Shown in pieces: positions 413 through 59,880 of a stretch of 64,000 nt of DNA (positions are counted from its first letter, which is position 1; the number at the start of each line of letters is the position of its first letter). This DNA is from Candidatus Moraniibacteriota bacterium. GTDB lineage: Bacteria; Patescibacteriota; Minisyncoccia; Moranbacterales; GWC2-37-73. Made by a program: the position numbers and the translations under genes. Location of the stretch: positions 74,634 through 138,633 of the forward strand of contig JAAXUC010000002.1 in assembly GCA_013336225.1 (NCBI GenBank), read 5' to 3'. The notes under the pieces are model-generated. The model had not been told where the DNA came from and made no database searches. It worked only from the letters and a program-made list of their open reading frames with translations.

Positions 413-419
413 GCAATTT

Positions 420-5962: not shown

Positions 5963-7096
5963 ATGGTGTTCAATATGAGATATAATAAAAAACTAACAAA
6001 TCCCCGTATGTCATTTAAGAAAACAATTGCCTTGATAGCCATCACAGTGTTGCTTAGTTTTGGAGAAACAACATCTGCTCAAACCACTGCAACCGACCTG
6101 CGCTTAACAAGTTCACCACTCCCAATTAATCTGAAGGTTATTCCAGGCACCACCGTTTCAGCTAATATTAAAGTTAAGAATGATGGCATCAGTGCGGAAA
6201 ACATCAGAATAACTTTGATGAAGTTTAAAGCTGATTCTGCTACGGGTGCTCCAAATCTTAGCGAAAGGCAAGCGGGAGATGACTACTTTGATTGGGTGAC
6301 TTTTTCTGAAGATAAATTTGTGCTGCCAGTTAATGAATGGAAAACAATCACGGCAACCTTTAATGTTCCAGCCTCAGCCTCATTTGGATATTATTATGCA
6401 GTAGTTTTTACTCGCGCGCAGGAAAATGTTACTCAAAGTGAAAAGCAAACGATACTTGTCGGTGGTATGGCGACCTTGGTTTTGCTGGAAGCTCAAGTTC
6501 CAAATGCAAAAAGAGAAATCCAAGTGACAGATTTTTCAGTGGACAAATCAATGTTTGAATTTTTGCCTGCCACTTTTTCAATCAAACTAAAAAACACTGG
6601 CAATGTGCATCTCGCTCCACGCGGAAATATTTTTATCAGTAAAAGCGATCAAAAGGATGTTGCAATTTTGGAAGTCAATCCAAACAAAGGGTCAATCTTG
6701 CCTGATTCGCCAAGAACGTTTGAGGAAAGTTGGTCGGATGGTTTTCCATATTACATCGACAAGCAAGCAGACGGAAAAGTTGTTATTGATGGTAATGGTA
6801 AAACAGAACAAGAATTGAAATGGAACTTTGCAGAGGCCTCAAAACTCAGATGGGGAAAGTATACCGCCAAGATGCTGCTTGTGTATGATGATGGCAAACG
6901 GGATGTTCCCGTTGAAGCAGAAGTGAGTTTTTGGATTATGCCATGGAGAGTGATTGGTGCAGGAATCTTTGTTGCAATTTTTGTTTTCATTGGTCTTAAA
7001 TCAACTTCACAAAATTTCTGGAGAAGAATTAGGACAATGTTTGGCAAAGAAAAAGAAATCATTGGCAAGAAAAAACCTATCAATAAGAAGAAATAA
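5963..7096 (+). CDS. Secreted protein with C-terminal TM anchor and basic tail (NTGNVH-PRG family), tandem copy 2
   Basis: 377 aa. The likely true start is the ATG at 5975, which is homologous to the copy-1 start. Identical to copy 1 through ...SFWIMPWRVI, then a different anchor GAGIFVAIFVFIGL followed by a K-rich tail. Confidence 0.7.
   Translation: MVFNMRYNKKLTNPRMSFKKTIALIAITVLLSFGETTSAQTTATDLRLTSSPLPINLKVIPGTTVSANIKVKNDGISAENIRITLMKFKADSATGAPNLSERQAGDDYFDWVTFSEDKFVLPVNEWKTITATFNVPASASFGYYYAVVFTRAQENVTQSEKQTILVGGMATLVLLEAQVPNAKREIQVTDFSVDKSMFEFLPATFSIKLKNTGNVHLAPRGNIFISKSDQKDVAILEVNPNKGSILPDSPRTFEESWSDGFPYYIDKQADGKVVIDGNGKTEQELKWNFAEASKLRWGKYTAKMLLVYDDGKRDVPVEAEVSFWIMPWRVIGAGIFVAIFVFIGLKSTSQNFWRRIRTMFGKEKEIIGKKKPINKKK
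5969..6955 (+). repeat. Tandem direct repeat, unit 2 (987 bp)
   Basis: See unit 1. Divergence begins right after codon I of PWRVI in both copies. Confidence 0.85.
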
Positions 7097-7100
7097 AAGA

Positions 7101-7238
7101 GTATTAATACCCCAGGGCAAGCCCTGGACCCGATGGGTTTTCGAGGCAAGCCTCGAGGCATTAAACCTTTTGGTATCGTCACTCACTCGGAAATGATTGT
7201 CTGCTGACAAATCATTTCGCTCGTTTCGCTAGATAATA
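7101..7238 (-). repeat. Family A structured repeat, copy 2 (inverted relative to copy 1)
   Basis: The reverse complement aligns end-to-end with 420-558. Differences fall in hairpin stems and are compensatory (TCGAGG/CCTCGA versus TTGAGG/CCTCGA). Confidence 0.75.
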
Positions 7239-19852: not shown

Positions 19853-21556
19853 ATGAAATATTTGGCTTTCACAAATCAAGATATTGAAAAAATTCTTGGT
19901 GAGTCTGGCGTGGTTGATGAGGCAAAGGTTGCCAAAGCAGTGGCTAGTGCCAAGCTGGAAAATAGCTCACTTGCAGATGTCGCTGTCAATCAGGGGCTTG
20001 TTACTAATGAAGAATTGTCCAGATTGGTGGCGGATGCACTGGATATGCCATTTATGTCACTTGCTGGAAAACTTCCAACCAAAGAGACTTTGGCACTTAT
20101 TCCTGAATTAGTGGCCCGCAAGAAGCGCGTGGTGCCTTTTAGGTTGGATGAAAAGGGATTACATGTTGCAATGGCGGATCCCACTGATCTTGAAACACTC
20201 AATTTCATTGCTCGCAGGGAGGGCATGCATGCCATTGCCTATGCCACCACTGATCAAGATATTGATACTGTCCTGGAGCTGTATGGCGAAGGGTTGAACA
20301 ATTTGTTGGAAATAAAATCTGAAAAGTCTGGAAAAGTTGCTGGCAGCGAGGATGATTCTTCCATTATTCAGATTGTGAAAAAAGTTATTGTGGAGGCGTA
20401 TCGCAATCGCGCCTCTGATATTCATATTGAACCGCGCGAAGAAAGCGACAGTGTGATCAGATTTCGTATTGATGGAATTTTGCATGACGTCACCTTGATT
20501 CCAATGGAATTGCATGCCCAAATCATTTCGCGCATCAAAGTGATGGCAAAGTTGCGAACTGATGAACATCAAACTCCACAGGATGGAAAAATTTCTTTCA
20601 AGCTGGAGGATGACAATTCTGAAATGGATTTGCGTGTTTCAATCGTGCCGGTGACAGAAGGAGAAAAAGCAGTGCTGCGTCTTTTGGCTGAACGTTCTCG
20701 TCAATTTTCATTGGCTGGCATTGGCCTTAGTGAAAATAATCTGAAAAAAATTCAAGAGGCTTATGAAAAACCATATGGCATGGTTTTGTCGACTGGACCG
20801 ACTGGTTGTGGAAAAACCACAACATTGTATGCCATTTTGAAACTTTTGAATAAACGGCACGTGAACATCATGACCATTGAAGATCCGGTGGAATATGACA
20901 TTGATGGAGTGAGCCAAATTCAAGTCAATCCCAAAGCAAAGCTTACTTTTGCCTCAGGTTTGCGCAGCATTTTGCGTCAAGATCCGAACATCATTTTGGT
21001 GGGAGAAATTCGTGATCAAGAAACGGCTGGCATTGCAATCAATTTGGCGCTTACGGGACATCTGGTTTTATCAACCTTGCATACTAATGACAGCGCCACG
21101 GCCATTCCACGTTTCATTGATTTGGAAGTGGAACCATTTCTGATTGCTTCGACTGTCAGTGTCATCATCGCGCAACGTTTGGTGCGTAAAATCCATGATG
21201 GCTGCAAAGTGAGCGAGGAATTTAAAGCGGCTGACATCGCCAAGAAAATTGGTTGGGAGCTTACTGAAAAAATGTTTGGTGTCAAAAAATCCAATCCGGA
21301 TGGTACTGTGCGACTGTATCAAGGCAAAGGTTGTGAAGCTTGTCAGGGAACAGGTTTTCAGGGCAGAATCGGAATTTTTGAAGTGATGGTCATGGATGAT
21401 CAAATGCGACAAGCAATTTCTCAAAACAAAGATGCGGGCTTTTTGGAGGAGTTGGCGAAAAAGTCAGGCATGATTGGTCTCTTGGAAGATGGCTTGGGAA
21501 AAGTTAACATGGGAATTACAACTATTGATGAGATTTTGGGTGCCACGAAATTATAG
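19853..21556 (+). CDS. pilB: Type IV pilus assembly ATPase PilB/GspE family (locus 1)
   Basis: 567 aa with an N-terminal GspII_E-like domain. Walker A is GPTGCGKTT. The ATPase core begins ASDIHIEP and a tetracysteine motif follows (C...C...CEACQGTGFQGR). Confidence 0.85.
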   Translation: MKYLAFTNQDIEKILGESGVVDEAKVAKAVASAKLENSSLADVAVNQGLVTNEELSRLVADALDMPFMSLAGKLPTKETLALIPELVARKKRVVPFRLDEKGLHVAMADPTDLETLNFIARREGMHAIAYATTDQDIDTVLELYGEGLNNLLEIKSEKSGKVAGSEDDSSIIQIVKKVIVEAYRNRASDIHIEPREESDSVIRFRIDGILHDVTLIPMELHAQIISRIKVMAKLRTDEHQTPQDGKISFKLEDDNSEMDLRVSIVPVTEGEKAVLRLLAERSRQFSLAGIGLSENNLKKIQEAYEKPYGMVLSTGPTGCGKTTTLYAILKLLNKRHVNIMTIEDPVEYDIDGVSQIQVNPKAKLTFASGLRSILRQDPNIILVGEIRDQETAGIAINLALTGHLVLSTLHTNDSATAIPRFIDLEVEPFLIASTVSVIIAQRLVRKIHDGCKVSEEFKAADIAKKIGWELTEKMFGVKKSNPDGTVRLYQGKGCEACQGTGFQGRIGIFEVMVMDDQMRQAISQNKDAGFLEELAKKSGMIGLLEDGLGKVNMGITTIDEILGATKL

Positions 21557-21593
21557 ATATATATAAAAAACAAGAGCTATGCTAGATTAGGTG

Positions 21594-21725
21594 CTTTTGA
21601 TTTCTTATTTCCTTTTTTAGGAACATTTTTGACTGAAATTCATAGTCAAAAAACTTACTCGCTCTCGCTGCGTAGGTCCTAAAAAGAAAATAAGCAAATC
21701 AAAAGGTGAGTTAATTTTTGAAATC
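21594..21725 (+). repeat. Family B structured repeat, copy 1 (intergenic pilB-pilC)
   Basis: Outer arms TTTGATTTCTTATTTCCTTTTTTAGGAAC and GTAGGTCCTAAAAAGAAAATAAGCAAATCAAAA are complementary. The inner hairpin is TTTTTGACTGAAATTCATAGTCAAAAA. The core is CTCGCTCTCGCTGC. Homologous to 24344-24474 and 30273-30416. Confidence 0.7.
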
Positions 21726-21730
21726 ATATA

Positions 21731-22816
21731 TTGCCCATAATCAAAAAAATAAATATGAAAATATTCTCAGGACTCTCATACTTAGAAAAACTTTTTTTCA
21801 TCAAGCATCTTTCGATGTTTTTGAAATCAGGCATTCCGCTGGATGAAGCACTTGAAACATTGGCTGAAGGTGAGCAGAAAAGTTCTATTAGCAAAGTCGC
21901 GTTGTCAGTCAGGGCTCAGATTCAAAATGGGCAGCCACTGCATAAGGCTTTTGCCAAGGAATCCAGTTCATTTGATCTATTTTTCATTTCCATGGTGGAA
22001 ATTGGAGAAGTGTCTGGCACGCTGGAAAAAAGTTTGGATTTTTTGGTGGCCAAAATCACCAGAGAGGCGACGCTGCGAAAAAAAATTCAAGCCATGCTAT
22101 ATTATCCAGCTGTGGTGGTTGGCGCTGCAATCGTGATTGGAGGTTTTGTGAGTTTTTTCGTGTTGCCAAAATTGGGGGACATGTTCAAATCGTTTGATGT
22201 GCAATTGCCTCTTATAACCAGGATATTATTGGCTTTTGCTAATTGGGTGAAAGATTATGGTGCAATTGCGATGATATCTTTCATTGCGTTGCTGATTGTT
22301 TTTCGTGTGCTTATCGCTGCTTGGACGCGTCTGCGATTTTTTTGGCATAAAATCAAATTCAACCTGCCCATTACAGGCAAAGTCATCTTGGGCTCAGAGC
22401 TTTCGGCATTTTTTCGAAACATTGGAATCATGCTTTCCAGTGGACTTTCTTTGGAATATGCACTTGCCACTGAATCTAAAATTTCAGACAACCTTGTCAT
22501 GAAAAAAGTGGCAGCTGATTTGCACATGGCGGTGACTCAGGGGCGGCGCATGGGGGAAGAGTTGAAAAGTGAAAACAACACGATTTTCCCTCAGCTTTGC
22601 GCAAGAATGATTACGGTGGGTGAGATGTCTGGAAAACTGGAAGAATCATGCATGTATTTGGCTGATTATTTTGAAGATGAAACTGAGGTGCAAGCAAAAA
22701 ACATGGCTGCAATTTTGGAGCCAGCCTTGCTTTTAGGCATCGGAGCGATCGTGGCTTTCATCGCAATGGCTGTTATTTTGCCTATCTATTCTTTGACTGG
22801 TTCCATTCGTCGCTAA
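21731..22816 (+). CDS. pilC: Type IV pilus platform protein PilC/GspF family (locus 1)
   Basis: 361 aa with two GspF-like repeats and 3-4 TM helices. It sits immediately downstream of pilB. Confidence 0.75.
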   Translation: MPIIKKINMKIFSGLSYLEKLFFIKHLSMFLKSGIPLDEALETLAEGEQKSSISKVALSVRAQIQNGQPLHKAFAKESSSFDLFFISMVEIGEVSGTLEKSLDFLVAKITREATLRKKIQAMLYYPAVVVGAAIVIGGFVSFFVLPKLGDMFKSFDVQLPLITRILLAFANWVKDYGAIAMISFIALLIVFRVLIAAWTRLRFFWHKIKFNLPITGKVILGSELSAFFRNIGIMLSSGLSLEYALATESKISDNLVMKKVAADLHMAVTQGRRMGEELKSENNTIFPQLCARMITVGEMSGKLEESCMYLADYFEDETEVQAKNMAAILEPALLLGIGAIVAFIAMAVILPIYSLTGSIRR

Positions 22817-22834
22817 GATGTTGAAAAAAGTTAA

Positions 22835-23290
22835 ATGTCAAAAGTTAAATGTCAAATATTGCATAAGCAGGGATTTACTTTAATCGAATTACTTTTGGTG
22901 ATTGCGCTTGTTTTGATCGTGAGTGTTCCAACCGCTGCTTTTTCCACGCATTTCATTTATCAAATGTCTGTGCGCGATGCCTCTGAAGGTTTGGTTGGAA
23001 TGCTGCAAGAAGCGCAAGCACTTTCAATGCTGGGCAAAGAGAATTCAGCTTGGGGCGTGAAAAAGCAATCAGGAAAATTGATTCTTTTTCGGGGAGAAGA
23101 TTTTTCAAATCGCGATCAAGCATTTGATCAAGCGTTGAGCATAAATTCGCATGTGAATATGATAGGTTTTGATGAAATGAGTTTCTCGCGCTATGGAGGA
23201 TTTCCTTTGCAGCCAACTGGCTCAATTGTTGTGGCTTGGGGGAATGTGAACGAAATATTTAAATTAAATTCGGAAGGAGTTTTTGAATAA
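22835..23290 (+). CDS. Prepilin-type minor pilin (pseudopilin)
   Basis: ...HKQG then FTLIELLLVIALVLIV: a class III signal with G/F cleavage and Glu+5. Confidence 0.7.
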   Translation: MSKVKCQILHKQGFTLIELLLVIALVLIVSVPTAAFSTHFIYQMSVRDASEGLVGMLQEAQALSMLGKENSAWGVKKQSGKLILFRGEDFSNRDQAFDQALSINSHVNMIGFDEMSFSRYGGFPLQPTGSIVVAWGNVNEIFKLNSEGVFE

Positions 23291-23298
23291 TTATCAGC

Positions 23299-23769
23299 AT
23301 GAAAAAAGGAATATCACAAAAGCGAGGTTTTTCGGTGCTAGAAGTCATTTTAGCAGTGGCACTTTTTTCCATTTTTTCCACTACTGCTGTTTCCTTTGTG
23401 CTTGAATCGATGCAAGTGCAAGCTCAAGCCAGTCAATTTGAAAATGCCTCACTGTATGCCGAGGATGGCTTGGAAAAAATAAGAGCAGTGCGAGATGTTT
23501 CATTTGATGAATTGGTGGATGGGTCTGAATATGGATTGAACTTCAATGCTGGTAAGTGGGAATTGAAAAATGGCAGTGATGAATCTGAAATATACAAAAG
23601 AATCATCACAATCGAAACAGCCAAAAGAGACGGTGAGCTGAATATTGTTTCGGAAGACGGAGCAGATGATTTGAATATGAAAAAAATAATAGTAGATGTT
23701 TCCTGGAAAAATGCCACGGGCGAAAATGTTTCAACTCAGCTAGTGACTTATCTTTCTCGTTGGAAGTAA
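23299..23769 (+). CDS. Prepilin-type minor pilin (pseudopilin)
   Basis: MKKGISQKRG then FSVLEVILAVALFSIF: a class III signal. Confidence 0.7.
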   Translation: MKKGISQKRGFSVLEVILAVALFSIFSTTAVSFVLESMQVQAQASQFENASLYAEDGLEKIRAVRDVSFDELVDGSEYGLNFNAGKWELKNGSDESEIYKRIITIETAKRDGELNIVSEDGADDLNMKKIIVDVSWKNATGENVSTQLVTYLSRWK

Positions 23770-24293
23770 AAAATATGACAAATAAAACAAAAAAGGGCTT
23801 TACCTTCATTGAAACTATATTATATATAGCAATTTCGTCAGTTGTGGTTGGCGTGCTTTTTGCCTATGGTTGGAATATGGTCAGCGCGCGCACTAAAGCT
23901 GCCACCATGCGAGACACTGCTGCAAATGCCAGGCTCATCATGTTGCGCCTCAACAATGAAATTCGCATGGCAACTGATATTGATAAAAATAATTCTGTTT
24001 TTGAGGGCGAAAATGGAAAAATATCGCTGACCACTCCTCAAGGAAAGATCATGATCGAATCAATTGGAGATAGGATTTCCATTGCCAGAGGGGAAAATTC
24101 CCCGCAATTTCTTTCCGGAGAAAATGTGCGCGTGAGAAATTTTCAATTATCCAAACAAGAAAATGACGCTGGGAAAGTTCAATATGTGGGATTTTCTTTC
24201 ACAGTGGAAGCCTATTATCCTGAAGCGCTTAACAGTTATGAATACAATTATTCATTGCCAATTAATTCGGGAGCGGAGGTGAGAAGTCAGTAA
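23760..24293 (+). CDS. Prepilin-type minor pilin (pseudopilin)
   Basis: ...NKTKKG then FTFIETILYIAISSVVVG: a class III signal. The start is probably the ATG at 23775. Confidence 0.7.
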   Translation: MEVKNMTNKTKKGFTFIETILYIAISSVVVGVLFAYGWNMVSARTKAATMRDTAANARLIMLRLNNEIRMATDIDKNNSVFEGENGKISLTTPQGKIMIESIGDRISIARGENSPQFLSGENVRVRNFQLSKQENDAGKVQYVGFSFTVEAYYPEALNSYEYNYSLPINSGAEVRSQ

Positions 24294-24343
24294 AATTAAA
24301 TTATGTATGCATATAAAGGATGCATTGTTCCGTCATTAAGTAT

Positions 24344-24474
24344 TTTGCTTTGCTTATTTCCTTTTTTGACACATTTTTGACTGAAAATCATAGTCAAAAA
24401 ACTGATTCGCTCTCGCTGCATAGGGTCTAAAAAGAAAATAAGCAAAGCAAAATGGTGTGGATTAATTTTTGAAA
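24344..24474 (+). repeat. Family B structured repeat, copy 2 (between minor-pilin genes)
   Basis: Same arm/hairpin/core arrangement as 21594-21725, with scattered substitutions. Confidence 0.7.
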
Positions 24475-24488
24475 GCGCATGTTGCAAT

Positions 24489-24905
24489 ATGATCATATAT
24501 GAATCAGAAAATAAAAAAGGTTACGTGGTTATTTCAACAGTCTTGATCTTGCTTTTTGTTACCTTGGGAATCGCTGCCACGCTTTCATTTCTTTCAATTG
24601 GAAGCTCAAAAGTTTCGCAGTCTTTTGGCGAAGGGCGGCAAGCGTTGTTTCTTTCTGAATCTTGCCTGGAGGAAGGATTGTTGCGACTCAAAACTGACGT
24701 TGCCTATGCTGGCGGAACAATCAATTTTCCTGAAGAAAAAGTGTGTCATCTCAACATCACGAATGATGGCCAAATATATACGATGCAAGCCTACATGCTA
24801 GGGCAAAAAAAATATGTACGTTCTCTTGAGGTACATGTGAATATTGTTGATGGCATTTTGCAAATAATAAGTTGGGAAGAGAAACCTTTTGTGATAGAAT
24901 ATTAA
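24489..24905 (+). CDS. PilX-like minor pilin (PilX_N-type hydrophobic N-terminus)
   Basis: KKGYVVISTVLILLFVTLGIAATLSFLSIG...RQALFLSESCLEEGLLRL resembles the PilX N-terminal domain pattern. 138 aa. Confidence 0.5.
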   Translation: MIIYESENKKGYVVISTVLILLFVTLGIAATLSFLSIGSSKVSQSFGEGRQALFLSESCLEEGLLRLKTDVAYAGGTINFPEEKVCHLNITNDGQIYTMQAYMLGQKKYVRSLEVHVNIVDGILQIISWEEKPFVIEY

Positions 24906-24906
24906 T

Positions 24907-26268
24907 ATGTTTTTTCGCCATCACATCACTACCATCTTTGTAACTCGCGGCAAGATCACTTCCGCTGTTTTTTCGACTGGTGGAAAAAACATCAAAGCAG
25001 CGGCTGTGTATGATTGGAACGAGGAAAATCTCGCCCTTGTTCTTGCTGACATTGCAGCGCATGGTCCAAATGTGGTCAGGGTTGTTTTTGGAGAAGAATT
25101 CTCCTATGTTACCACACTTGATTCTTCCAAGGGTGATAGAGGAAGCATTTTGGAAAAGGCGCGCGAAGCGATTCCTGAGGAGCTGGGGGATAATTGGGAT
25201 TTTCGCAAAGAAAAGGATCAGCTCTTTTCCTCACAAGTGATTGCCGTTCAAGCTCAGCTGCTGAACATGTTTATTGAAAAATTGAAAGAAGCCGGCTTGC
25301 GCGTGGAAGCCATGGAGCCTCAATCAGTGGCAATTGCTCGCTTGCTTCCAAAAACTGGCTTGTTTCTTTTTGCCGTGAATGACGAGAAGTTTTTGATGGG
25401 GGCAGTGAGAAATGGCACAGTCATTGGAACTTTTGTGGCTGCAAAAAGCGATGACGCTTCAATGTTGGCGGGCTTTGTTGCTTCAGTGCGAAAAAAATGC
25501 AAAGAAGAACTTAGCACAGTCTTGATCGATAAATATATGCAAGTTGGGGACGATGTTTTTTTGGCCAATGGCTTGCAGCCTGAAATCATGGAGCTTGACC
25601 CCCTGTATTCAATTGCAGTAAAGAAACATCTTGTTGGTAGTGATTCACATGTCTTGAATATTTTGCCAGTTGATAAGAAAATTCTCAAGAAGCAGGCAAC
25701 AGAAAAATATTTATCAAAAATTGAAAACACTGCAACAGTGCAAGCTCCTGCTCGCTTTTCATTGCGCGAAAAAATATTGGCAATCTTTTTTGTTATAGGT
25801 CTTGTCGCAAGCGGATTCGTGTTGCTTAAAAAAATGCCACCCAAGAAACAAAGCATCTCATTGATTGCAACAGAAAAAAAGCAAGAAGTTGCCATGCAAA
25901 ATGATGTTATTCAAAATCCTTCAGCAACTGTGGAACAGCAAGCTTCTGCCGAAAAGGTTGTGCAAGATGTCGTTTCAACAAAAAGGCCTCAAGATTTGCA
26001 AATTTTGATTCTAAACGGCGGCGCAGCTGTTGGTAGCGCAGCAAAAGTTAAGGATATTTTGGTAGCCAAGAAGTATGTGAATATTGACGCTCAAAATGCG
26101 GAAAATAAGGATAATGTTGGAGTTGTCCTGTATTATCAAGCACAAAATGTGGAAAATATGGCTCAAATAAAAGCAGATTTACAAAAAACATATCCTAAAA
26201 TAGTAGCCAAGGAGGCGTCCTCAGCTGAGGAAAAATCTTCGGAAATCGTCATTATATTGGGGAAATAG
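24907..26268 (+). CDS. PilM-like actin-fold domain, TM helix, C-terminal LytR_C domain fusion protein
   Basis: The N-terminal ~280 aa resemble PilM (…SQVIAVQAQLLNMFIEKLKEAGLRVEAMEPQSVAIARLL…). A TM helix ILAIFFVIGLVASGFVLL follows. The C-terminus LQILILNGGAAVGSAAKVKDIL...VGVVLYY...IVIILGK matches LytR_C. Confidence 0.55.
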   Translation: MFFRHHITTIFVTRGKITSAVFSTGGKNIKAAAVYDWNEENLALVLADIAAHGPNVVRVVFGEEFSYVTTLDSSKGDRGSILEKAREAIPEELGDNWDFRKEKDQLFSSQVIAVQAQLLNMFIEKLKEAGLRVEAMEPQSVAIARLLPKTGLFLFAVNDEKFLMGAVRNGTVIGTFVAAKSDDASMLAGFVASVRKKCKEELSTVLIDKYMQVGDDVFLANGLQPEIMELDPLYSIAVKKHLVGSDSHVLNILPVDKKILKKQATEKYLSKIENTATVQAPARFSLREKILAIFFVIGLVASGFVLLKKMPPKKQSISLIATEKKQEVAMQNDVIQNPSATVEQQASAEKVVQDVVSTKRPQDLQILILNGGAAVGSAAKVKDILVAKKYVNIDAQNAENKDNVGVVLYYQAQNVENMAQIKADLQKTYPKIVAKEASSAEEKSSEIVIILGK

Positions 26269-26381
26269 GGCTTCAAAGATAGTGGCCGGAATCTTTTTTG
26301 TGCCATTTGCAGGCACAATATGGCTCAATATTGACTATAACAGCAAAATCGTTTAAGATAGGTATTAGTTGAGAAATTCCA

Positions 26382-26453
26382 CGGGGCGTGGTGTCAACGG
26401 TAGCACGAGTGATTTGGGATCATTTAGACAGGGTTCGAATCCCTGCGCCCCGA
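26382..26453 (+). tRNA. tRNA-Pro (anticodon TGG)
   Basis: Cloverleaf fold: acceptor CGGGGCG/CGCCCCG, D-stem GTGT/GCAC, anticodon stem AGTGA/TCATT with loop TTTGGGA, T-arm CAGGG-TTCGAAT-CCCTG, discriminator A. CCA is not encoded. Confidence 0.85.
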
Positions 26454-26456
26454 CAT

Positions 26457-26507
26457 AAAACAAAAACAGAGAGGACTTTTTGAGTCCTCTCTGTTTTTGT
26501 TTTATTT
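26457..26507 (+). terminator. Strong Rho-independent terminator after tRNA-Pro
   Basis: AAAACAAAAACAGAGAGGACT-TTTTG-AGTCCTCTCTGTTTTTGTTTTATTTT. Confidence 0.75.
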
Positions 26508-26508
26508 T

Positions 26509-26815
26509 GGATTGCCAGGGATTCGAACCGGTGGCAGTGAGCTAGAGAATTTTCAGCAGAAAATTGTCGCAGCGAACGCCGGTAAATGTGAGGAATACGA
26601 ACATTTAGCGCCACCGCGGACAAGGAGATTGTGAGCGACGGCGAACAAGCGACGCGGAAATCCCTGCTTCTCTGCGTACTCGCGAGAAAGTTCGGGGGAA
26701 GAGGAATCCCTCTCCTTATGGCATTTAGGAAGTACGAACATTCAGCTCTGCCGCGGACAACTAGCAATCAGCAAATTGCGAGGCGTAAATCTCTGCACCC
26801 ATTTGTATAAAAACC
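26509..26815. ncRNA. Candidate structured non-coding RNA region, identity unresolved (contains an inverted tRNA T-arm fragment)
   Basis: About 300 nt that is markedly more GC-rich than its surroundings. CCAGGGATTCGAACC is the reverse complement of a tRNA T-arm. Internal near-duplicate segments are GGAATACGAACATTTAGCGCCACCGCGGACAA and GGAAGTACGAACATTCAGCTCTGCCGCGGACAA. There is no convincing ORF and no full tRNA, tmRNA or RNase P fold. Confidence 0.3.
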
Positions 26816-26858
26816 CTTTTCGTGCTTAGATTAAAGCATAATTGTAAGATAATCAGAT

Positions 26859-27503
26859 ATGAGTTATCACGGAAAAATTGACAATAGAAAGAAGATTGCC
26901 TTGATTGTGGCGCGCGAGCTGCGAGCGCTTTTTCCGGATGCTAAAATTGCTCTTAATTTCAGCAATTCCTGGGAACTTTTAGTGGCGGTGATTTTGTCTG
27001 CGCAGTGCACTGATAAGAAAGTGAACGAAGTGACGGCCAAGCTTTTTCAAAAATATCCAATATTGGATGACTATGTGGCTGCCAACCAACTGGAATTTCA
27101 GCAAGATGTTTTTCAAACAGGTTTTTATCATAATAAAGCTAAGAACATTTTGGCTAGCGCCAAGATTGTTAAAGAGAAATATCAAGGTAAAGTTCCTTGT
27201 ACAATGCAGCAGCTCCTTGAACTGCCTGGCGTCGCCCGCAAGACCGCCAATGTGGTTTTGGGCAGTGCATGCGGCGTGCATGTGGGAATCGCGGTGGACA
27301 CGCATGTGCGAAGACTTTCCAATCTTTTGGGACTTAGTCCTGAAAAAAATCCTGATAAGATTGAAAGAGATTTGATGCAAATTTTTCCCAAACAGGAATG
27401 GCCAAAACTTTCCTACCGCTTGATTGAATATGGCCGCAAATATTGCAGTGCTAAAAAACATGATCACGAAAATTGTCCACTGACAAAAATTTTAAACAGC
27501 TAA
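26859..27503 (+). CDS. nth: Endonuclease III-like HhH-GPD DNA glycosylase
   Basis: Helix-hairpin-helix LPGVARKTANVVL with the catalytic D in VDTHVRRL. Only two Cys lie in the C-terminal region, where canonical Nth has a C-X6-C-X2-C-X5-C 4Fe-4S motif. Confidence 0.7.
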   Translation: MSYHGKIDNRKKIALIVARELRALFPDAKIALNFSNSWELLVAVILSAQCTDKKVNEVTAKLFQKYPILDDYVAANQLEFQQDVFQTGFYHNKAKNILASAKIVKEKYQGKVPCTMQQLLELPGVARKTANVVLGSACGVHVGIAVDTHVRRLSNLLGLSPEKNPDKIERDLMQIFPKQEWPKLSYRLIEYGRKYCSAKKHDHENCPLTKILNS

Positions 27504-27522
27504 ATTTTAGAAATTTAAAAAT

Positions 27523-28659
27523 ATGTTAAGTTATATTGAAATTTCAAAAGAAAATTTGCTACATAATTTTGCGATGATGAAATCATTGGTTGGGTCTGGA
27601 GTGAAAGTCATTTCCGTGATAAAAGCCAATGCTTATGGGCATGGTCAAAATGAGGTGGCTAAAATTTTGGAAGAAGTCACTGACTATTTTCAAGTTGATG
27701 ATCTGCAGGAACTTAAACTGCTGCGAGAGGTTTCGCAAAAACCTGTTTTAGTGCTGGGCTATATTGCCACAGATGAAATGAAAGAAGCGCTGAAGTTGGA
27801 TGGAATCCTGGGTGTCTATGACGAAGGTCAGATTCTGGCTTTAAACGAAATTGCCAAAGAGTTTGGAAAAAAAGTTTTGGTGCATGTGAAAATTGACGCC
27901 TATCTTGGGCGCCAGGGCGTGCTGCCTGAAAATGTCGAGGAAATTTCAAGGGTGCTTAAAAAATGTGAAAATCTGGTGGTGGATGGAATTTATTCACATT
28001 TTGCAAACATTGAAGACACTAGTGATTTTTCGCATGCTCAAAAACAAATTGATGCTTTTGCCAGAGCCGTGGAAGTTTTCAAAGAAAATGGTTTTGCAGA
28101 TTTGAAAACGCACATGTCGGCAAGCTCAGGAATCATGGTGTGGGAAAACGGACAAGGCAATTCTCACTTAGTGAGGCCAGGTATTAGTTTGTATGGCATG
28201 TGGCCATCTAATGAATTGAAAAATAAGCTTGATCCGCCAGCTGGCGGAAAAAACTTCAAGCTAAAACCGGTTGCGCGTTGGATTTCACATGTAGCACAGG
28301 TCAAAACCGTGCCAATTGGCTATTCGATCGGCTATGGACTTACGCACATTACAAAAAAAATAACCAAAATAGCTGTGATTCCTCAGGGATATAGTGACGG
28401 CTTTGATCGCGGACTTTCCAATTGTGGAGAGGTACTGGTCGGCGAAACAAGATGTCCAATCTTGGGGCGTGTGGCTATGAATATGTTCGTGGTGGATGTT
28501 TCACATTTAGAGGGAGTGATTGCTGGAGACGAAGTGGTTTTGTTGGGCAAGCAAGGAGAGCAAGAAATCATGGCTGAGGAAATTGCAGAAAAAATTGATA
28601 CGATTAATTATGAGATAACCACTCGAATTTCTCCATTGCTGAAAAGAATTGTTGTGTAG
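27523..28659 (+). CDS. alr: Alanine racemase
   Basis: PLP-lysine motif VIKANAYGHG near the N-terminus. 378 aa with the alanine racemase N- and C-domain pattern. Confidence 0.8.
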   Translation: MLSYIEISKENLLHNFAMMKSLVGSGVKVISVIKANAYGHGQNEVAKILEEVTDYFQVDDLQELKLLREVSQKPVLVLGYIATDEMKEALKLDGILGVYDEGQILALNEIAKEFGKKVLVHVKIDAYLGRQGVLPENVEEISRVLKKCENLVVDGIYSHFANIEDTSDFSHAQKQIDAFARAVEVFKENGFADLKTHMSASSGIMVWENGQGNSHLVRPGISLYGMWPSNELKNKLDPPAGGKNFKLKPVARWISHVAQVKTVPIGYSIGYGLTHITKKITKIAVIPQGYSDGFDRGLSNCGEVLVGETRCPILGRVAMNMFVVDVSHLEGVIAGDEVVLLGKQGEQEIMAEEIAEKIDTINYEITTRISPLLKRIVV

Positions 28660-28810
28660 GCATTGACGCTTAACTTTCTCTCAAATGCGTGCTATGCTTT
28701 GATGGTTGTAAAGTGGAAAAAAGATAAAAATTAAGCAGAGGTATGCACCTGAATTGAAAGGGTATTTGGATTGGTCGCGTATGAATTCATGTATACAGCT
28801 GGCGGGTTAA

Positions 28811-29422
28811 ATGAAAAGTGAAAATTTGAAAGAATTTAATAGTGCTGAGGATGTCGCAGAAATGTCAGATGAAGAGCTTGTTTTGTTGACCCTTGAAAAT
28901 CCCAATGCTTACGGTTTTTTGATTGAGCGTTATGAGGAGAAACTGACGAGATATATTCTGCGAATTTCTGGTGGTTCAAAAGAAGATGTGGAAGACACGT
29001 TGCAAGATGTTTTCATTAGTGCCTATAAGAACATCAATTCTTTTGATCAAGATCTCAAATTTTCATCTTGGATTTATCGAATTGCACATAATAAAGTCAT
29101 CAGTCATTTCCGAAAAATAACTGCCAGGCCAAAGACAGTGACCTATGAAGGAGACAATCAGTTGCTCAACATTCTGGCAAGCAGTGAAGATTTGGCCAAA
29201 GAACTGGAGCGGAAATATACTGGCGAAGAAGTGAGGTCACTTTTGGAGCAAATGGATGAACGCTACAAGGAGGTTTTGGTGCTCAAATTCTTGGAAGAAA
29301 AAGATTACAAGGAAATTTCAGATATTTTGGAGAAACCGATGGGAACAGTGGCAACCTTGATAAATAGGGCTAAGAAACAATTTAAAGAAAAAGCAATTAA
29401 GCGAGATTTAAAAAAAGTATGA
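28811..29422 (+). CDS. RNA polymerase sigma factor, ECF (sigma-70 regions 2 and 4)
   Basis: Region 2 is DTLQDVFISAYKNINSFD...FSSWIYRIAHNKVISHFRK. Region 4 is YKEVLVLKFLEEKDYKEISDILEKPMGTVATLINRAKKQF. Confidence 0.75.
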   Translation: MKSENLKEFNSAEDVAEMSDEELVLLTLENPNAYGFLIERYEEKLTRYILRISGGSKEDVEDTLQDVFISAYKNINSFDQDLKFSSWIYRIAHNKVISHFRKITARPKTVTYEGDNQLLNILASSEDLAKELERKYTGEEVRSLLEQMDERYKEVLVLKFLEEKDYKEISDILEKPMGTVATLINRAKKQFKEKAIKRDLKKV

Positions 29423-30135
29423 CTAAATTCAGCGAAGACATTATTGGAAAAATTAAATGCGATCATATCGCTCCTGTTCCTCGTTGGCATTTTTTATTTA
29501 AAAGATGCTGTTTTTGGATGCTTTTTGCCATCTCCATGATCCTGGGCAGCATTTCTTTTAGCGTTATTGTGCATGTTTTGAAATCTGGTGATTTTGATAT
29601 TGTGCATCATCTGCAGGGAAATCTGGCAACTTCAACTGTCATGTTGCTGCCATATTTCTGGCTGCTATTCTTGATTCTTTTTGCAGCAATTGCTTACACT
29701 AACTGGAAATGCACGAAACTGGGATATTGCTTCAAGCGCAGATGGATTGTTTTTGGCAGCTTTGCATTGAGCATTTTTTTGGGAAGTATTTTGTATGTAC
29801 TTGGCATGGGAAAATATATTGATAGGATGATGACAAGATCGATGCCATTTTATAATCAATCCAAGCATGATGCACTCAGAGAAATGTGGCTTCATCCTGA
29901 GAATGGTTTTTTGACTGGAAAAATTGTTGAAATAAATGAAGAGACAGAGGAGCTTGTTGTGATTGATGAAGAGGGTAGAAAATGGATCGTTGATGACGAT
30001 GGCATTTATTGGGAGAATGTTGAATTGGAAAAAAGGGGAAAGATTGTTAAAGTTATCGGCAGCAGGGAAGGTGAAAGTAACTTCAAGGCAAGAGAAATAC
30101 GAAGATGTGGAAACTGCGAAGATGATGAGGAATAA
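29419..30135 (+). CDS. Membrane protein co-transcribed with the ECF sigma factor (candidate anti-sigma factor)
   Basis: It overlaps the sigma gene stop by 4 nt. 238 aa with an N-terminal cytoplasmic segment, multiple TM helices and a Cys-containing acidic C-terminus. Confidence 0.4.
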   Translation: MTKFSEDIIGKIKCDHIAPVPRWHFLFKRCCFWMLFAISMILGSISFSVIVHVLKSGDFDIVHHLQGNLATSTVMLLPYFWLLFLILFAAIAYTNWKCTKLGYCFKRRWIVFGSFALSIFLGSILYVLGMGKYIDRMMTRSMPFYNQSKHDALREMWLHPENGFLTGKIVEINEETEELVVIDEEGRKWIVDDDGIYWENVELEKRGKIVKVIGSREGESNFKAREIRRCGNCEDDEE

Positions 30136-30213
30136 AAACATATAATCATGCAATCATACAAGCATTTAAACATGTAAGTGTAAGCATGAATGCAAAATGC
30201 AGAGAGCTCAAAT

Positions 30214-30248
30214 AAAAAAAGTCATGATGGAAATCATGACTTTTTTTG
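30214..30248 (+). terminator. Rho-independent terminator
   Basis: AAAAAAAGTCATGAT-GGAA-ATCATGACTTTTTTTGG. Confidence 0.7.
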
Positions 30249-30272
30249 GTTGCAGGACATTTTTTGATATCT

Positions 30273-30416
30273 TGTTTTGCTTATTTCCTTTTTTAGGAAC
30301 ATTTTTGACTGAAAATCAATAGTCAAAAAACTTACTCGCTTCCGCCAGCTGGCGGAGCATGCGTAGGTCCTAAAAAGAAAATAAGCAAATCAAAAAGTGC
30401 GAGTTAATTTTTGAAA
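30273..30416 (+). repeat. Family B structured repeat, copy 3 (with a 14-bp palindrome insertion)
   Basis: Same arms and inner hairpin as copies 1 and 2. The core CTCGCT is replaced by TCCGCCAGCTGGCGGAGCAT, which contains the perfect palindrome CCGCCAGCTGGCGG. Confidence 0.7.
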
Positions 30417-30430
30417 CCATATATTATTTA

Positions 30431-31627
30431 TTATTTTAACAATTCAGTTTTTTCCAGGGTTTCACTGATAAGTGTTGGAATGTCCAAAGCTTTTTCTGCC
30501 TCCAAAACCTCCCAAAGTTTTGCGCGCGTTTCAGGTTTCTTGGGCATCAGGCGCGTGCAGCAATCATCATGAGGCAAGATGGAAATATCATAGGTTCCGA
30601 TTGCTTTGGCTTTTTGCATGATTTCTTCCTTGTCCATTCCAATCAGTGGTCTGAAAATTGGCAAAGTGGCAGCCTGGCTGACAACCAAAATGTTTTCCAA
30701 GGTTTGCGAAGCAACTTGTCCGATCGAATCGCCCGTGATGAGTGCTAAACACTTTTCTTTTTTGGCCAGTGCTTCACTGATGCGCATCATCATGCGACGA
30801 TAGAGAATCACGCGAAATCTTTCCGGTGTTTTCATCATGATTTCCTGCTGCACGCTGGCAAAGGGAATGAGATATATTCTGGTGGAGCCACCAAACGTTT
30901 TCAGCTTTTGGCTCAGGGTGACAACTTTTTCAATGGAGGCTTTGGAAGTGTAGGGAGCAGAATGGAAATGGGCATAGCGAAGTTGCACGCCACGTCGCAT
31001 GATTTGAAAAGCAGCCACTGGAGAATCGAAACCACCTGAAAGCATCGCCATGGCCTTGTTGCCTGTGCCCACAGGCATGCCGCCCAGTCCTTGAATTTTC
31101 TGCAAGGAAATGAGAGCAAATTCATTGATGATGAAAATTTTGCATTCAAGCTCCGGATTTTTCATGCTGACTGCCTTTTTCCCATCAAGCTTATCGAAAA
31201 TATAGCCACCGACTTCTCGGTTGATTTCTTCAGAAGTCATGGGAAAATTCTTGTTTGATCGCTGAGTGGTGACGCGAAAAGTTTTAAAGTCTCCGCCAGC
31301 TGGCGGATAGATGGTATGTTTTACGATTTCCCAACAAGCAGTTTTCAAGGCTTCAATATCTTGTGTAACGCTCGTGGCGAAAGAGAAATTGGCAATGCCA
31401 AAAGTGTGCATCAGCGCGCCATGAATCAAGGTTTCATTTTCAATCCCTTTGGCGCTCAGTTTGATTAAAATTCCACCAGACATTCTTTTGACATAGTCAA
31501 AGCTGCCCTCACAAAAAGCATTCAATTGATTTTGAATGTTGGTGATTAATTGCGCTTCGAAAAAGTTGCGGTTTCCGCCTTTAAGCGCAATTTCTCCGTA
31601 GTGACAGAGGACGAATTCGTAATTCAT
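30431..31627 (-). CDS. thiI: tRNA 4-thiouridine(8) synthase ThiI (THUMP + PP-loop ATP pyrophosphatase)
   Basis: PP-loop motif LSGGFDSPVAAF. An N-terminal THUMP-like region is present. 398 aa. Confidence 0.8.
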   Translation of the reverse strand: MNYEFVLCHYGEIALKGGNRNFFEAQLITNIQNQLNAFCEGSFDYVKRMSGGILIKLSAKGIENETLIHGALMHTFGIANFSFATSVTQDIEALKTACWEIVKHTIYPPAGGDFKTFRVTTQRSNKNFPMTSEEINREVGGYIFDKLDGKKAVSMKNPELECKIFIINEFALISLQKIQGLGGMPVGTGNKAMAMLSGGFDSPVAAFQIMRRGVQLRYAHFHSAPYTSKASIEKVVTLSQKLKTFGGSTRIYLIPFASVQQEIMMKTPERFRVILYRRMMMRISEALAKKEKCLALITGDSIGQVASQTLENILVVSQAATLPIFRPLIGMDKEEIMQKAKAIGTYDISILPHDDCCTRLMPKKPETRAKLWEVLEAEKALDIPTLISETLEKTELLK

Positions 31628-33060: not shown

Positions 33061-33199
33061 TATTATCGAACGTAGCGAGCGAAATGATTTGTCAGCAGAC
33101 AAAATCATTTCCGAGCGAGTGATGATAATAAATTGGTTAATATCTCGCGGCTTGCCGCGGAAACCCAGAGGGTTCGGGGCTTGCCCCGGGGTTAATACC
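33061..33199 (+). repeat. Family A structured repeat, copy 3 (diverged)
   Basis: Collinear with copy 1. All three hairpins are retained through compensatory substitutions (TCGCGG-CTTG-CCGCGA; CGGGGC-TTG-GCCCCG). Confidence 0.7.
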
Positions 33200-33357
33200 T
33201 ATTTATTTTTGTGCGGAAAAACAATTGCAACTTTTAAAATTAACACCAATGTGACTTGTTTTAATGCAAAAAATAAAAACTATTCTCGCTGTCTACTAAT
33301 AACGTTTAGATGTTAACAGCTCTTAACATATTTGTGTTGTATGGCATGTGGTTTTTG

Positions 33358-34945: not shown

Positions 34946-36694
34946 ATGCAAATAGAAAACAAACAGCTCAAGGCGTTTCTTTTGGATTCAAATTTATTGA
35001 GTCTTGAGGTTGTGGAAGAAAATTTTAAACTCGCTTTGGAAACCAATCAAAAATTGGGCGATTTGTTGATAGAAAAAAAATTGATCAACGAAATTGAGCT
35101 CAAAAAGTTGTATTCATACATTCTGGGTATTCCATTTGTAAATCTTGAAAAAGAAACTATCACGGCTGATATTTTGCAAATTATACCGGAGCCGATTGCC
35201 AAAAAATATGGAATTATCGCTTTTGAAAAAAGCGGCAATGATTTGAAGGTTGCCATGAAGAATCCTGAAGATTTGCAAACCATTGATTTTATCAAAAAGA
35301 AAACTGGTCTTAAAATCATTCCATGCCTCACTAATGAAGAAAGCATTAAAGCCATTCTCAAGCAATATGAGAAGAGCTTGAAAGCTGAGTTTGGAGACAT
35401 CATCAGTAAAAATTCTGATGATGTTGATGCTGGAAATGATACTCAAGATTTGGAAAAAATTGCTCAAGATCTGCCGATTATTAAAATTGTGGACACGCTT
35501 TTAAAGCATGCCATTTTGCAATCAGCCAGTGATATTCATATTGAACCTGGAGAGAAAGAGGTGCGCGTCCGCTATCGCATCGATGGCGTGCTGCATGATG
35601 CGATGACCCTTCCAAAGCAAGTGCTGGAGGGATTGGTAGCTCGTATTAAAGTTTTGTCTAATTTGAAATTGGATGAACATCGCTTGCCGCAAGATGGTCG
35701 ATTTAAAATTGAAAAAGAAGGTTATAAAATTTCTTTTCGTGTCAGTATGTTGCCAGTTTTTGAAGGTGAAAAAATCGTGATGCGTTTGCTGGATGAAACT
35801 TCTAAGGGGCTGACTTTGGAAAAAATGGGACTGGCTGGCAAAGCCTTGGAAGTTGTGCATCGGCATGTGAAGCGTCCCAATGGAATGGTGTTGGTGACTG
35901 GGCCAACTGGTTCAGGTAAAACCACTACACTCTACACAATCATGGATATCTTGAACACGCCTGATGTGAACATCAGTACAGTGGAAGATCCAGTGGAATA
36001 TCGCATGGTTCGTGTTAATCAGACTCAAACGAATGCTAAAATAGGAATGACCTTTGCGGCGGCACTGCGCAGTCTTTTGCGTCAAGATCCTGACATCATC
36101 ATGGTGGGAGAAATTCGAGATGGAGAAACCATGCAAATTGCAGTGGAAGCTGCCATGACAGGACATCTCGTGCTTTCAACTTTGCACACCAACAGTGCGG
36201 CTGGAACTCTGCCTCGACTTTTGGACATGGGTGCAGAAGCTTTTTTGGTGGCATCCACTGTCAACGTGATTATTGGTCAACGACTTGTGCGAAAATTGTG
36301 CAATGAATGTAAAGTTGCCTATAAATTTAGTGAAAAAGAAATAGTGACACTTGGCAAAACTTTTGATATGGATGCTATGATGGCAATGCTCAAAGGGACT
36401 CCTGAAATGGCAGAGATGGTCACAGCTAAAAGCACCTGGAAAACAGTGGATTTCTATAAAGCCAAGGGATGTGAACAATGCAATCAAGAAGGATATCATG
36501 GTCGCTTGGGAATCTATGAAGTGCTTGAAATGGATGAAACTATCGGAAAATTGATCACCTCTAATGCCTCATCGGATGATATTGAGAAAAAAGCCAGAGA
36601 AAATGGTATGCGCACGATGGGAGAAGACGGATTTATCAAAGCAATTCAGGGAATCACTTCAATTGAAGAAGTGATGCGAGTAACCAAGGAGTAA
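34946..36694 (+). CDS. pilB: Type IV pilus assembly ATPase PilB/GspE family (locus 2 paralog)
   Basis: 582 aa with an N-terminal GspII_E-like domain. Walker A is GPTGSGKTT. ASDIHIEPGEKE is present, and so is a tetracysteine motif (CNEC...CEQCNQEGYHGR). Confidence 0.85.
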   Translation: MQIENKQLKAFLLDSNLLSLEVVEENFKLALETNQKLGDLLIEKKLINEIELKKLYSYILGIPFVNLEKETITADILQIIPEPIAKKYGIIAFEKSGNDLKVAMKNPEDLQTIDFIKKKTGLKIIPCLTNEESIKAILKQYEKSLKAEFGDIISKNSDDVDAGNDTQDLEKIAQDLPIIKIVDTLLKHAILQSASDIHIEPGEKEVRVRYRIDGVLHDAMTLPKQVLEGLVARIKVLSNLKLDEHRLPQDGRFKIEKEGYKISFRVSMLPVFEGEKIVMRLLDETSKGLTLEKMGLAGKALEVVHRHVKRPNGMVLVTGPTGSGKTTTLYTIMDILNTPDVNISTVEDPVEYRMVRVNQTQTNAKIGMTFAAALRSLLRQDPDIIMVGEIRDGETMQIAVEAAMTGHLVLSTLHTNSAAGTLPRLLDMGAEAFLVASTVNVIIGQRLVRKLCNECKVAYKFSEKEIVTLGKTFDMDAMMAMLKGTPEMAEMVTAKSTWKTVDFYKAKGCEQCNQEGYHGRLGIYEVLEMDETIGKLITSNASSDDIEKKARENGMRTMGEDGFIKAIQGITSIEEVMRVTKE

Positions 36695-36700
36695 GCAAAA

Positions 36701-36827
36701 ATTTCATTTTTGAAATCCAAAATCCAAAGGTCAAATAAATGACAAAAGGACTTAATGATAGAAGATTTGGATTTCGTGCTTGAGATTTTATTTGGATTTA
36801 AGATTTTGTCATTGAGATTTTTTAAAA
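36701..36827 (+). promoter_or_regulatory. Family E AT-rich upstream element, copy 1 (directly 5' of pilC2)
   Basis: Shares ...CAAAGGTCAAATAAATGACAAAAGG...GATTTTATTTGGATTTAAGATTTTGTCATTGAGATTTTTTAAAA with 59881-60010. It contains an AATGACAAAA/TTTTGTCATT inverted repeat and a TTGTCA -35-like hexamer. It ends 4 nt before the ATG. Confidence 0.45.
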
Positions 36828-36830
36828 CAC

Positions 36831-38054
36831 ATGCCTAAATATCTTTATACAGCTAAGAGCTATAATGGTGAAACCAAGGGTGGTGAAGCCACAGCTCAAG
36901 ATGAAAAAAATCTTGCTCAGCAATTGCGGGGAGAAGGGTTTTTAGTTACCTCTATATCATTGGTAAAAGAAGTTGACACGAATAGTGTGAGCGTGAAATT
37001 TCTGGATAAATTTAAATCTGTTCCACTCAAGGAAAAAATGATTTTCGCGAGGAATTTGAGTATCATGGTTGCATCAGGATTAACTGTTTCGCGAGCCCTT
37101 AATAATTTGGCCGTGCAAACTGAAAATAAAACATTCAAAAAGATCTTGTTGGATGTCTATGAAGAAGTTCAAGGTGGAAAAACTTTGAGCGACGGCTTGG
37201 CAAAATATCCTGGTATTTTTGGAGAACTTTTCATTAATATGGTGAGAGTGGGGGAAACTGCTGGAAATTTGGATGAAGTTTTGAAGATCGTGGCTGTGCA
37301 GTTGGAAAAGGAAAATGATTTGAAAAGCAAGGTGAAAGGTGCCATGATTTATCCTGGAGTTATTCTTACTGTGATGCTTATTATTGGCTATGTCATGTTA
37401 ACTTTCGTGCTTCCGAAATTGCTAGGAGTTTTTAAGGACATGGACGCTAAGCTTCCAGCTATGACGCAATTTATTGTGGATCTGAGTGACATCTTGCGCA
37501 ACAATGGAATTGCCACAGCCATTCTGTTGGTTGTTTTGATTTTTTTTATGAAATGGTTTTTAGGTCAAGAATCAGGGAAGAGAACCTTGAGTTTTGTGGC
37601 CATTAAATTTCCGGTGTTTAGTCCTTTGGTGAAGCAGATGAATTGTGCGCGTTTTGCTCGAATTTACAGCTCCTTGCTGAAAAGTGGAGTTGGGAGTGTG
37701 GAGGCTTTGAAAATCATTTCACGCACGCTGACAAACTATTATTATCAAAAAGTTCTACTGGACAGCGTGGAGGATATTCAAAAGGGAGTTAGTCTCAGCA
37801 AAATTTTGGCTGATCATCAAGATATTTTTCCAGTGCTGGTTTCACAAATCGTGCAAGTGGGAGAGGAGACTGGAAAAACGGAAACGGTGCTTTTGCAGTT
37901 GGCTGAATTTTATGAAGCGGAAGTTGACCAAATAACGAAAAATTTGTCCGCCATCATCGAACCTATTTTGATGGTGTTTATCGGTGGAGCGGTTGGGTTT
38001 TTCGCTGTCGCCATGCTGACGCCGATGTATAGTATGATGGATAGTGTGAAATGA
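36831..38054 (+). CDS. pilC: Type IV pilus platform protein PilC/GspF family (locus 2 paralog)
   Basis: 407 aa with two GspF-like repeats and TM helices. It lies downstream of pilB2. Confidence 0.8.
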   Translation: MPKYLYTAKSYNGETKGGEATAQDEKNLAQQLRGEGFLVTSISLVKEVDTNSVSVKFLDKFKSVPLKEKMIFARNLSIMVASGLTVSRALNNLAVQTENKTFKKILLDVYEEVQGGKTLSDGLAKYPGIFGELFINMVRVGETAGNLDEVLKIVAVQLEKENDLKSKVKGAMIYPGVILTVMLIIGYVMLTFVLPKLLGVFKDMDAKLPAMTQFIVDLSDILRNNGIATAILLVVLIFFMKWFLGQESGKRTLSFVAIKFPVFSPLVKQMNCARFARIYSSLLKSGVGSVEALKIISRTLTNYYYQKVLLDSVEDIQKGVSLSKILADHQDIFPVLVSQIVQVGEETGKTETVLLQLAEFYEAEVDQITKNLSAIIEPILMVFIGGAVGFFAVAMLTPMYSMMDSVK

Positions 38055-59857: not shown

Positions 59858-59880
59858 GTTTCTTATTTTATTTTTTGTAA

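Follow-up and report, generated by a model that had tools for sequence, protein, structure and literature searches.

Four related repeats in a 64-kb stretch of DNA from a Candidatus Moraniibacteriota bacterium (64,000 nucleotides of contig JAAXUC010000002.1, here called the window) are very probably copies of a non-autonomous DNA transposon, namely a miniature inverted-repeat transposable element (MITE) of a family specific to Moranbacteria-like bacteria of the Candidate Phyla Radiation (CPR). A sequence-only reading of the window had taken them for hairpins of the repetitive extragenic palindromic/bacterial interspersed mosaic element (REP/BIME) kind, whose sense RNA would stabilise upstream mRNA and set PilB : PilC : minor-pilin ratios in a type IV pilus operon. 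This explanation is very improbable on the evidence given below: the idea that the repeats were designed to set stoichiometry through their sense RNA finds no support, and any effect on pilB/pilC/pilin stoichiometry would at best be a by-product, as the mRNA may be affected incidentally. The genomes of CPR bacteria (Patescibacteria) are tiny and usually treated as poor in mobile DNA, and a limited literature search found no account of MITEs in CPR bacteria. As a MITE family, the repeats are new in a CPR lineage and of an already known kind.

The evidence that carries this assignment comes from intact relatives of the window copies. These are 182–193 nt long (one, with an internal insertion, has 227 nt) and end in terminal inverted repeats of ~23 nt (5'-GGNTCAYACGCAATAYATGGTT ... 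AACCATRTATTGCGTRTGANCC-3'), which, in 14 copies, show 0–4 mismatches to the consensus at both ends. Inwards of the terminal repeats follow an internal loop that is asymmetric, then a long stem (~23 pairs) and a short helix (GGCA/TGCC), and finally two hairpins that form a three-way junction. An AT-rich direct duplication of 8 bp flanks the elements, with at least seven of the eight positions identical in 9 of the 14 two-ended copies, five of these being perfect; when left and right flanks were paired across different copies as a control, the same level was reached in 1.1% of cases. Examples of these duplications are AGAAAAAG, ATAATTTG, ATAATAAA, ATTAAAAG, and TAAAAAAA. The combination of terminal inverted repeats with a direct target duplication of fixed length, here AT-rich, marks an element as inserted by a transposase; both features are foreign to REP/BIME elements, so that the REP/BIME nature proposed for the repeats does not hold. 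The elements are also non-coding, with indels between copies and no common reading frame, and 51 of 52 copies are intergenic according to crude calls of open reading frames (ORFs), in which frames of 90 codons or more were accepted in order of decreasing length; the orientation census given below uses the same calls. Because of the insertion signature, the small size, and the lack of coding capacity, the elements are classed as MITEs. A small peptide had been considered as well, encoded by a 22-codon frame starting from the left arm, and was rejected, since the frame is not conserved across copies.

If this reading is correct, a transposase encoded elsewhere would bind to the ends of the element, make an 8-bp staggered cut in AT-rich DNA between genes, and place the element there, giving rise to the 8-bp direct duplication. 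The enzyme would be of the DDE type. Inside the element, a second long palindromic stem closes the small three-way junction that the two hairpins form. Two copies would then have landed by chance in the type IV pilus operon spacers of this lineage, where transcription of the operon would make them part of the mRNA and they would fold into long hairpins. Any effect on mRNA processing or relative expression would be a side-effect of insertion and not the cause of their existence.

The distribution of the family is consistent with its restriction to this group of bacteria. A permissive pattern scan of species-representative genomes returned at least 116 loci, of which about 100 of those listed are chance matches in AT-rich genomes; the true relatives among the matches listed belong to Candidatus Moranbacteria/Moraniibacteriota or Parcubacteria-group metagenome-assembled genomes (MAGs), several to a MAG and one to several to a contig, with one further MAG labelled Bdellovibrionales. 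At least five contigs of MAG LBRX01 and at least three of MAG JAQTLF01 carry copies, and a more specific pattern scan of metagenome contigs yielded further relatives. With a profile search, 64 matches were obtained, corresponding to about 50 non-redundant copies in Moranbacteria-like (CPR) genomes and metagenomes, among them a divergent subfamily that keeps the core and has different outer stems. The window has a G+C content of 40%, and its PilC shares 52% identity with the PilC proteins of Moranbacteria.

Within the window, the two-arm pattern TTTCCTTTTT...AAAGAAAANNNNCAAA matches exactly four sites, against 0.00 expected from shuffled sequence, and the 20-mer arm has five matches, against 0.07 expected by chance. 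The four copies are found where the sequence-only reading had placed them, all on the plus strand:

~254–438, plus strand: copy of the widespread subfamily, between convergent genes (nhmmer match 253–455; covariance model 294–415, 110 bits).
21573–21743, plus strand: copy in the pilB-pilC spacer (nhmmer match 21588–21748; covariance model 21591–21708, 82 bits).
24318–24495, plus strand: copy that separates the third pilin gene, which stops at 24293, from a pilin-like ORF that probably starts at 24499 (nhmmer match 24300–24491; covariance model 24339–24456, 105 bits).
30248–30436, plus strand: copy between convergent genes, 3' of a sigma/putative anti-sigma pair (nhmmer match 30248–30438; covariance model 30266–30399).

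The anatomy first described for these copies is also borne out, with complementary arms (given as ~30 nt) that measure 22–30 nt at a complementarity of 76–93%, an inner hairpin TTTTTGACTGAAA(A/T)TCATAGTCAAAAA, and a CTCGCTCTCGCTGC core. The unit of ~130 nt, in turn, proved to be only the inner part of the 182–193 nt element; a longer unit was first indicated by the ~30 nt 3' of each copy, which are likewise repeated (GAGTTAATTTTTGAAAyCATATATTGC). All four cores fold far better than shuffled sequences on either strand (z from -5.1 to -7.0).

Each window copy retains one recognisable terminal arm, and the copies are therefore probably old and would have lost their mobility. In the pilB-pilC copy, the core forms a long hairpin at 21594–21705 and the right terminal arm is recognisable at 21720–21743, the left arm being eroded or shortened; a possible 8-bp duplication, identical at seven of eight positions, would be formed by AAAAAACA (21565–21572) and AAAAAATA (21744–21751), judging from the flanking sequence. 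The copy at 24318–24495 has its core hairpin at 24342–24453 with arms that are 93% complementary, and its outer limits are approximate, as its terminal arms are degenerate. The copy at 254–438 holds an intact left terminal arm (254–276) and a core at 297–412, and its right terminal arm is cut by, or adjoins, a different repeat of ~135 nt that starts at ~427. Its core had been described as a degenerate relative at 296–412; it belongs instead to the most widespread subfamily and is 86% identical to copies in the Moranbacteria MAG LBRX01.

The copy at 30248–30436 is preceded by a terminator-like inverted repeat (30209–30252). Its eroded right end (30413–30436) runs into thiI (30431–31627, minus strand; ThiI by Pfam), where it covers the stop codon and the two codons before it, and the insertion may have reshaped the end of this gene. 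Since this copy lies 3' of the terminator-like hairpin and between convergent genes, it is outside the operon proper. The placement of the repeats between genes inside the pilus operon thus stands for the copies at 21573–21743 and 24318–24495 and fails for this one. Its core is also interrupted by a further palindrome:

30341–30356, no strand assigned: perfect 16-nt palindrome TCCGCCAGCTGGCGGA, nested in the loop of hairpin 2.

This palindrome lies in a segment of ~19 nt that has taken the place of CTCGC, and occurs three times in the window (28233–28248, 30341–30356, and 31292–31307), against ~0.02 expected by chance, with a relative bearing two mismatches at 61846–61861. The copies at 28233 and 31292 are located within coding regions, namely the ORF at 27523–28659 and thiI.

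The ~135-nt repeat next to the copy at 254–438 represents a second family, with copies at 427–548 (plus strand), 7100–7233 (minus strand), and 33065–33200 (plus strand). It holds two GC-rich hairpins, has no Rfam match, and shows compensatory changes between copies (GAGGCTTGCCTC versus GCGGCTTGCCGC; CCAGGGCTTGCCCTGG versus CCGGGGCTTGCCCCGG). A copy is also found in L181, from a 97% strain, at 2160–2220, at the contig end and downstream of the second pilin gene; at the corresponding position, the pilin genes of the window have only short or overlapping spacers.

The gene context of the repeats was rightly described as comprising pilB, pilC, pilins, and a sigma factor, and the identities of the operon genes are confirmed by Pfam (T2SSE, MshEN, T2SSF, and N_methyl), as is that of the extracytoplasmic function (ECF) sigma factor at 28811–29422. 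Two of the window copies lie within the spacers of the following operon:

19853–24293, plus strand: PilB-like ATPase (19853–21556), PilC-like platform protein (21755–22816), and three prepilin-type genes (22835–24293).

The same operon is present in relatives whose PilC is 61–77% identical, where it comprises sensor kinases, a response regulator, PilB, PilC, pilins, and an ORF of ~130 aa. The two spacers occupied in the window compare as follows:

Window: pilB-pilC spacer, 198 nt; pilin-ORF spacer, ~205 nt.
P0003 contig: pilB-pilC spacer, 11 nt; pilin-ORF, genes overlap.
L175: pilB-pilC spacer, 68 nt, with no profile match; pilin-ORF spacer, 17 nt, with no element.
P0006 contig: pilB-pilC spacer, 122 nt (length only); pilin-ORF spacer, 2 nt.
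L178: pilB-pilC spacer, 38 nt; pilin-ORF spacer, 17 nt.

In addition, L178 holds a full-length sense copy, and L177 a sense copy of the short subfamily, in the spacer between pilC and the first pilin gene. As these spacers are short in relatives, lack an element, or are replaced as insertion sites by other spacers of the operon, the insertions of the window are lineage-specific and would have reached this operon recently; a strain with a 97% identical PilC shares the pilB-pilC insertion. By this comparison of orthologous sites, the elements are not a conserved part of the pilus operon. Short-read contigs carrying a window-type pilC terminate inside the elements, as expected of dispersed repeats.

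This distribution bears directly on the proposed regulatory role. In its favour are the location of the elements between genes, with which they would be co-transcribed, their strong hairpins, and the sense orientation of all five copies in this operon across three genomes. Against it, the same spacers are empty in relatives and other spacers are filled elsewhere, and two of the four window copies are located between convergent genes.

Other palindromic repeats occur at comparable places. The window contains a second type IV pilus locus (T2SSE, 34946–36694; T2SSF, 36831–38054), whose pilB-pilC spacer is filled by a repeat at 36695–36830; this repeat is AT-rich, ~135 nt long, 80% identical to a copy at 59870–60005, and unrelated to the MITE. 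Similarly, L177 (PilC 77% identical) bears a different inverted-repeat element, CCGGCAGTGAAAATTCAAA ... TTTGAATTTCTACTGCCGG, at 40–175, upstream of pilC. The same spacers seem to have been colonised repeatedly by different palindromic elements.

The interior of the element was analysed with a covariance model, to which 43 sense-strand copies were aligned; a MAFFT alignment was rejected as a structural alignment, because its registers shift between subfamilies. Paired cells amount to 87%, compared with 74% in column shuffles and 43–55% when the partners were slid by 1–3 columns, values to be read with caution, since fitting the copies to the structure raises the share of paired cells. Compensatory change is observed in 28 of 37 pairs, and at least 12 different hairpin-1 stems hold one shape. 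Covariation analysis had been suggested as a check on the original proposal, and it does reveal compensatory pairs; it is no proof of an RNA function, given this fit of the alignment and the fact that palindromic DNA shows covariation even when it has no role as RNA.

Regarding the strand, it is the antisense that folds into the more stable structure in 48 of 51 copies (mean of -46.4 kcal/mol, versus -39.8 kcal/mol for the sense strand). The sense strand contains 88 A·C mismatches (46 without the invariant one), each of which would become a G·U pair on the antisense strand, compared with 25 G·U pairs. Both the greater stability of the antisense strand and the types of mismatch disfavour a function of the sense RNA, on which the REP/BIME explanation depends.

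Several observations weigh against the MITE assignment. Regarding a parent transposon, no transposase was detected among the 20 window proteins scanned with Pfam, no insertion sequence (IS) with matching ends was found in ~0.4 Mb of related loci by fuzzy terminal-repeat and long-range inverted-repeat searches, and a search of viral contigs by the core pattern gave zero matches. Clean terminal repeats and duplications are missing from the window copies, whose MITE status rests on homology to the intact relatives. The family also exhibits a strong orientation bias that a plain MITE model does not predict, and its interior is more conserved in shape than a simple MITE needs: in hairpin 1, six of six pairs covary and 98% are paired; the block TTT-C-CTTT / AAAG-A-AAA is invariant, with its C·A mismatch kept in 42 of 43 copies; and the core is kept in the subfamily with different outer stems. 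Two matches of viral contigs to the terminal-repeat pattern were discarded, one being within an ORF and read as chance and the other lacking the features of the element.

The conserved interior raises the question of whether the core, as cargo of the mobile element, is a structured nucleic acid with a function of its own and kept under selection, be it a cis-acting RNA, a small antisense RNA, or a protein-binding hairpin. We consider this improbable, albeit the least so of the alternatives. The excess of pairing over shuffled and slid alignments, the compensatory changes, the invariant block, the conserved GGCACGC and GCTGTCGC of the core, its retention across outer stems, and the systematically higher stability of the antisense strand speak for it, and selection on the core would explain the covariation, the invariant mismatch, and the strand bias. 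Nevertheless, palindromic DNA would covary in the absence of such a function, the pairing is inflated by the fitting of the alignment, and the subfamilies could have inherited the core from diverging parent insertion sequences. No match was found either in Rfam 15, which at gathering thresholds yields only tRNA in the window, and a promoter/terminator consensus scan of the copies revealed none common to them and no terminator-like site in any copy, two promoter-like matches being private to the copy at 24318–24495. Permissive Rfam scans returned only sub-threshold chance matches to mir-3173, Phe_leader, and snoRNAs (16–37 bits versus cut-offs of 45–84). A hammerhead-type ribozyme was likewise rejected, since the sequences at the junction differ from the conserved hammerhead core and there is no Rfam match.

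A more specific form of this idea, to which we give a similarly small chance, is that the three-way-junction module, with its invariant mismatched helix, its two covarying hairpins, and the antisense as the best-folding strand, is under selection of its own, either as a hairpin recognised in strand-specific transposition or as a small antisense or protein-binding RNA that CPR bacteria would have spread within their compact genomes. If true, such a module would account for an orientation strongly fixed to the chromosome strand.

The orientation bias itself was established by the census relative to transcription that the sequence-only reading had proposed, carried out family-wide. Among copies between same-strand genes, 26 are in the sense and 4 in the antisense orientation (binomial p = 6e-5, with homologous-flank sites merged), a bias that the REP/BIME explanation had anticipated. 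At 45 of 52 loci, the sense strand of the element is also the G-rich strand, and the window has a positive GC skew throughout, with ~85% of its genes on the plus strand. The sites where local and regional signals diverge are informative in this respect, although they number only 11, GC skew and gene strand being coupled in gene-dense fragments. At the two sites whose flanking genes oppose the majority of the region, the element is oriented with the region (2:0), and in convergent or divergent spacers, where transcription sets no preference, this holds in seven of nine cases; two copies oppose both the local genes and the region. The regional strand, which is rich in genes and in G, accounts for the bias no less well than local transcription does.

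A further alternative holds that the bias stems from strand-specific insertion relative to the replication fork via a single-strand hairpin intermediate, as in IS200/IS605-type elements or REPINs, rather than from transcription. The G-richness of the sense strand, the location of all four window copies on the strand of positive GC skew, and the nearly constant absolute orientation of copies on the same contig, even where local genes flip (L122 and L128), are in line with it. Terminal inverted repeats and target duplications of 8 bp, however, speak for a DDE transposase and against an HUH enzyme, which leaves no duplication, and the confounding of GC skew with gene strand at the few informative sites weakens the argument from orientation. 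We regard this alternative as improbable, less so than the REP/BIME explanation. No RAYT (HUH) transposase was present among the 20 window proteins scanned, and no systematic search for RAYT genes was made.

Further features were noted elsewhere in the window. An exact 300-nt duplication (4862–5161 and 5969–6268) maps to the N-terminal portions of two paralogues arranged in tandem (4868–5956 and 5963–7096), which have weak Fn3-like matches. A tRNA gene (26382–26453) is located in the row of plus-strand genes and is directly followed by a strong terminator-like hairpin of 20 bp (26457–26503).

As a MITE family, the repeats would occupy gene spacers across several Moranbacteria-like species, including those of the type IV pilus operons on which episymbionts depend. 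The copies interrupt short-read assemblies at pilus operons, and they could be used as strain-level presence/absence markers. Together, the orientation bias and the conserved interior offer a test case for selection on transcripts versus the mechanics of insertion in minimal genomes, and the idea of a role in pilus stoichiometry should not be taken as established.

Among known systems, the MITEs of several IS families resemble the window-type elements in duplicating 8 bp and in having GG at the start of their ends. Duplications of this length would fit IS6, ISL3, IS1595, IS66, IS256, and IS1 according to the ISfinder tables; unlike in these families, no transposase or full-length IS with the ends of the window-type elements was found here. 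REP, BIME, and REPIN elements (mobilised by RAYT) are likewise extragenic palindromic repeats, often between the genes of an operon and with regularities of orientation. Their units, however, are of 20–40 nt, depend on HUH tyrosine transposases, and cause no target duplication, whereas the window-type elements have 182–193 nt, terminal repeats, and 8-bp duplications.

The Correia elements of Neisseria (CREE/NEMIS) are also MITEs with many intergenic copies, often co-transcribed and forming long hairpins. They have ~100–150 bp and terminal inverted repeats of ~26 bp, and their hairpins can alter the fate of the mRNA. Correia elements, however, duplicate a TA dinucleotide, in contrast to the 8 bp duplicated by the window-type elements, which further differ in their conserved three-way-junction interior and their CPR host, there being no known sequence relationship between both. 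The ERIC elements (IRU) of enterobacteria are imperfect palindromes over their whole length of ~127 bp, found in intergenic regions and within operons across species, and they are transcribed. Orientation-dependent effects on neighbouring mRNA have been reported for them, and no transposase is known for them. Unlike ERIC, the window-type elements hold clear 8-bp duplications and distinct terminal repeats, and belong to another sequence family and another phylum. Judged by these analogies, the behaviour of the window-type elements would be closest to that of the Correia and ERIC elements, and not to that of REP/BIME.

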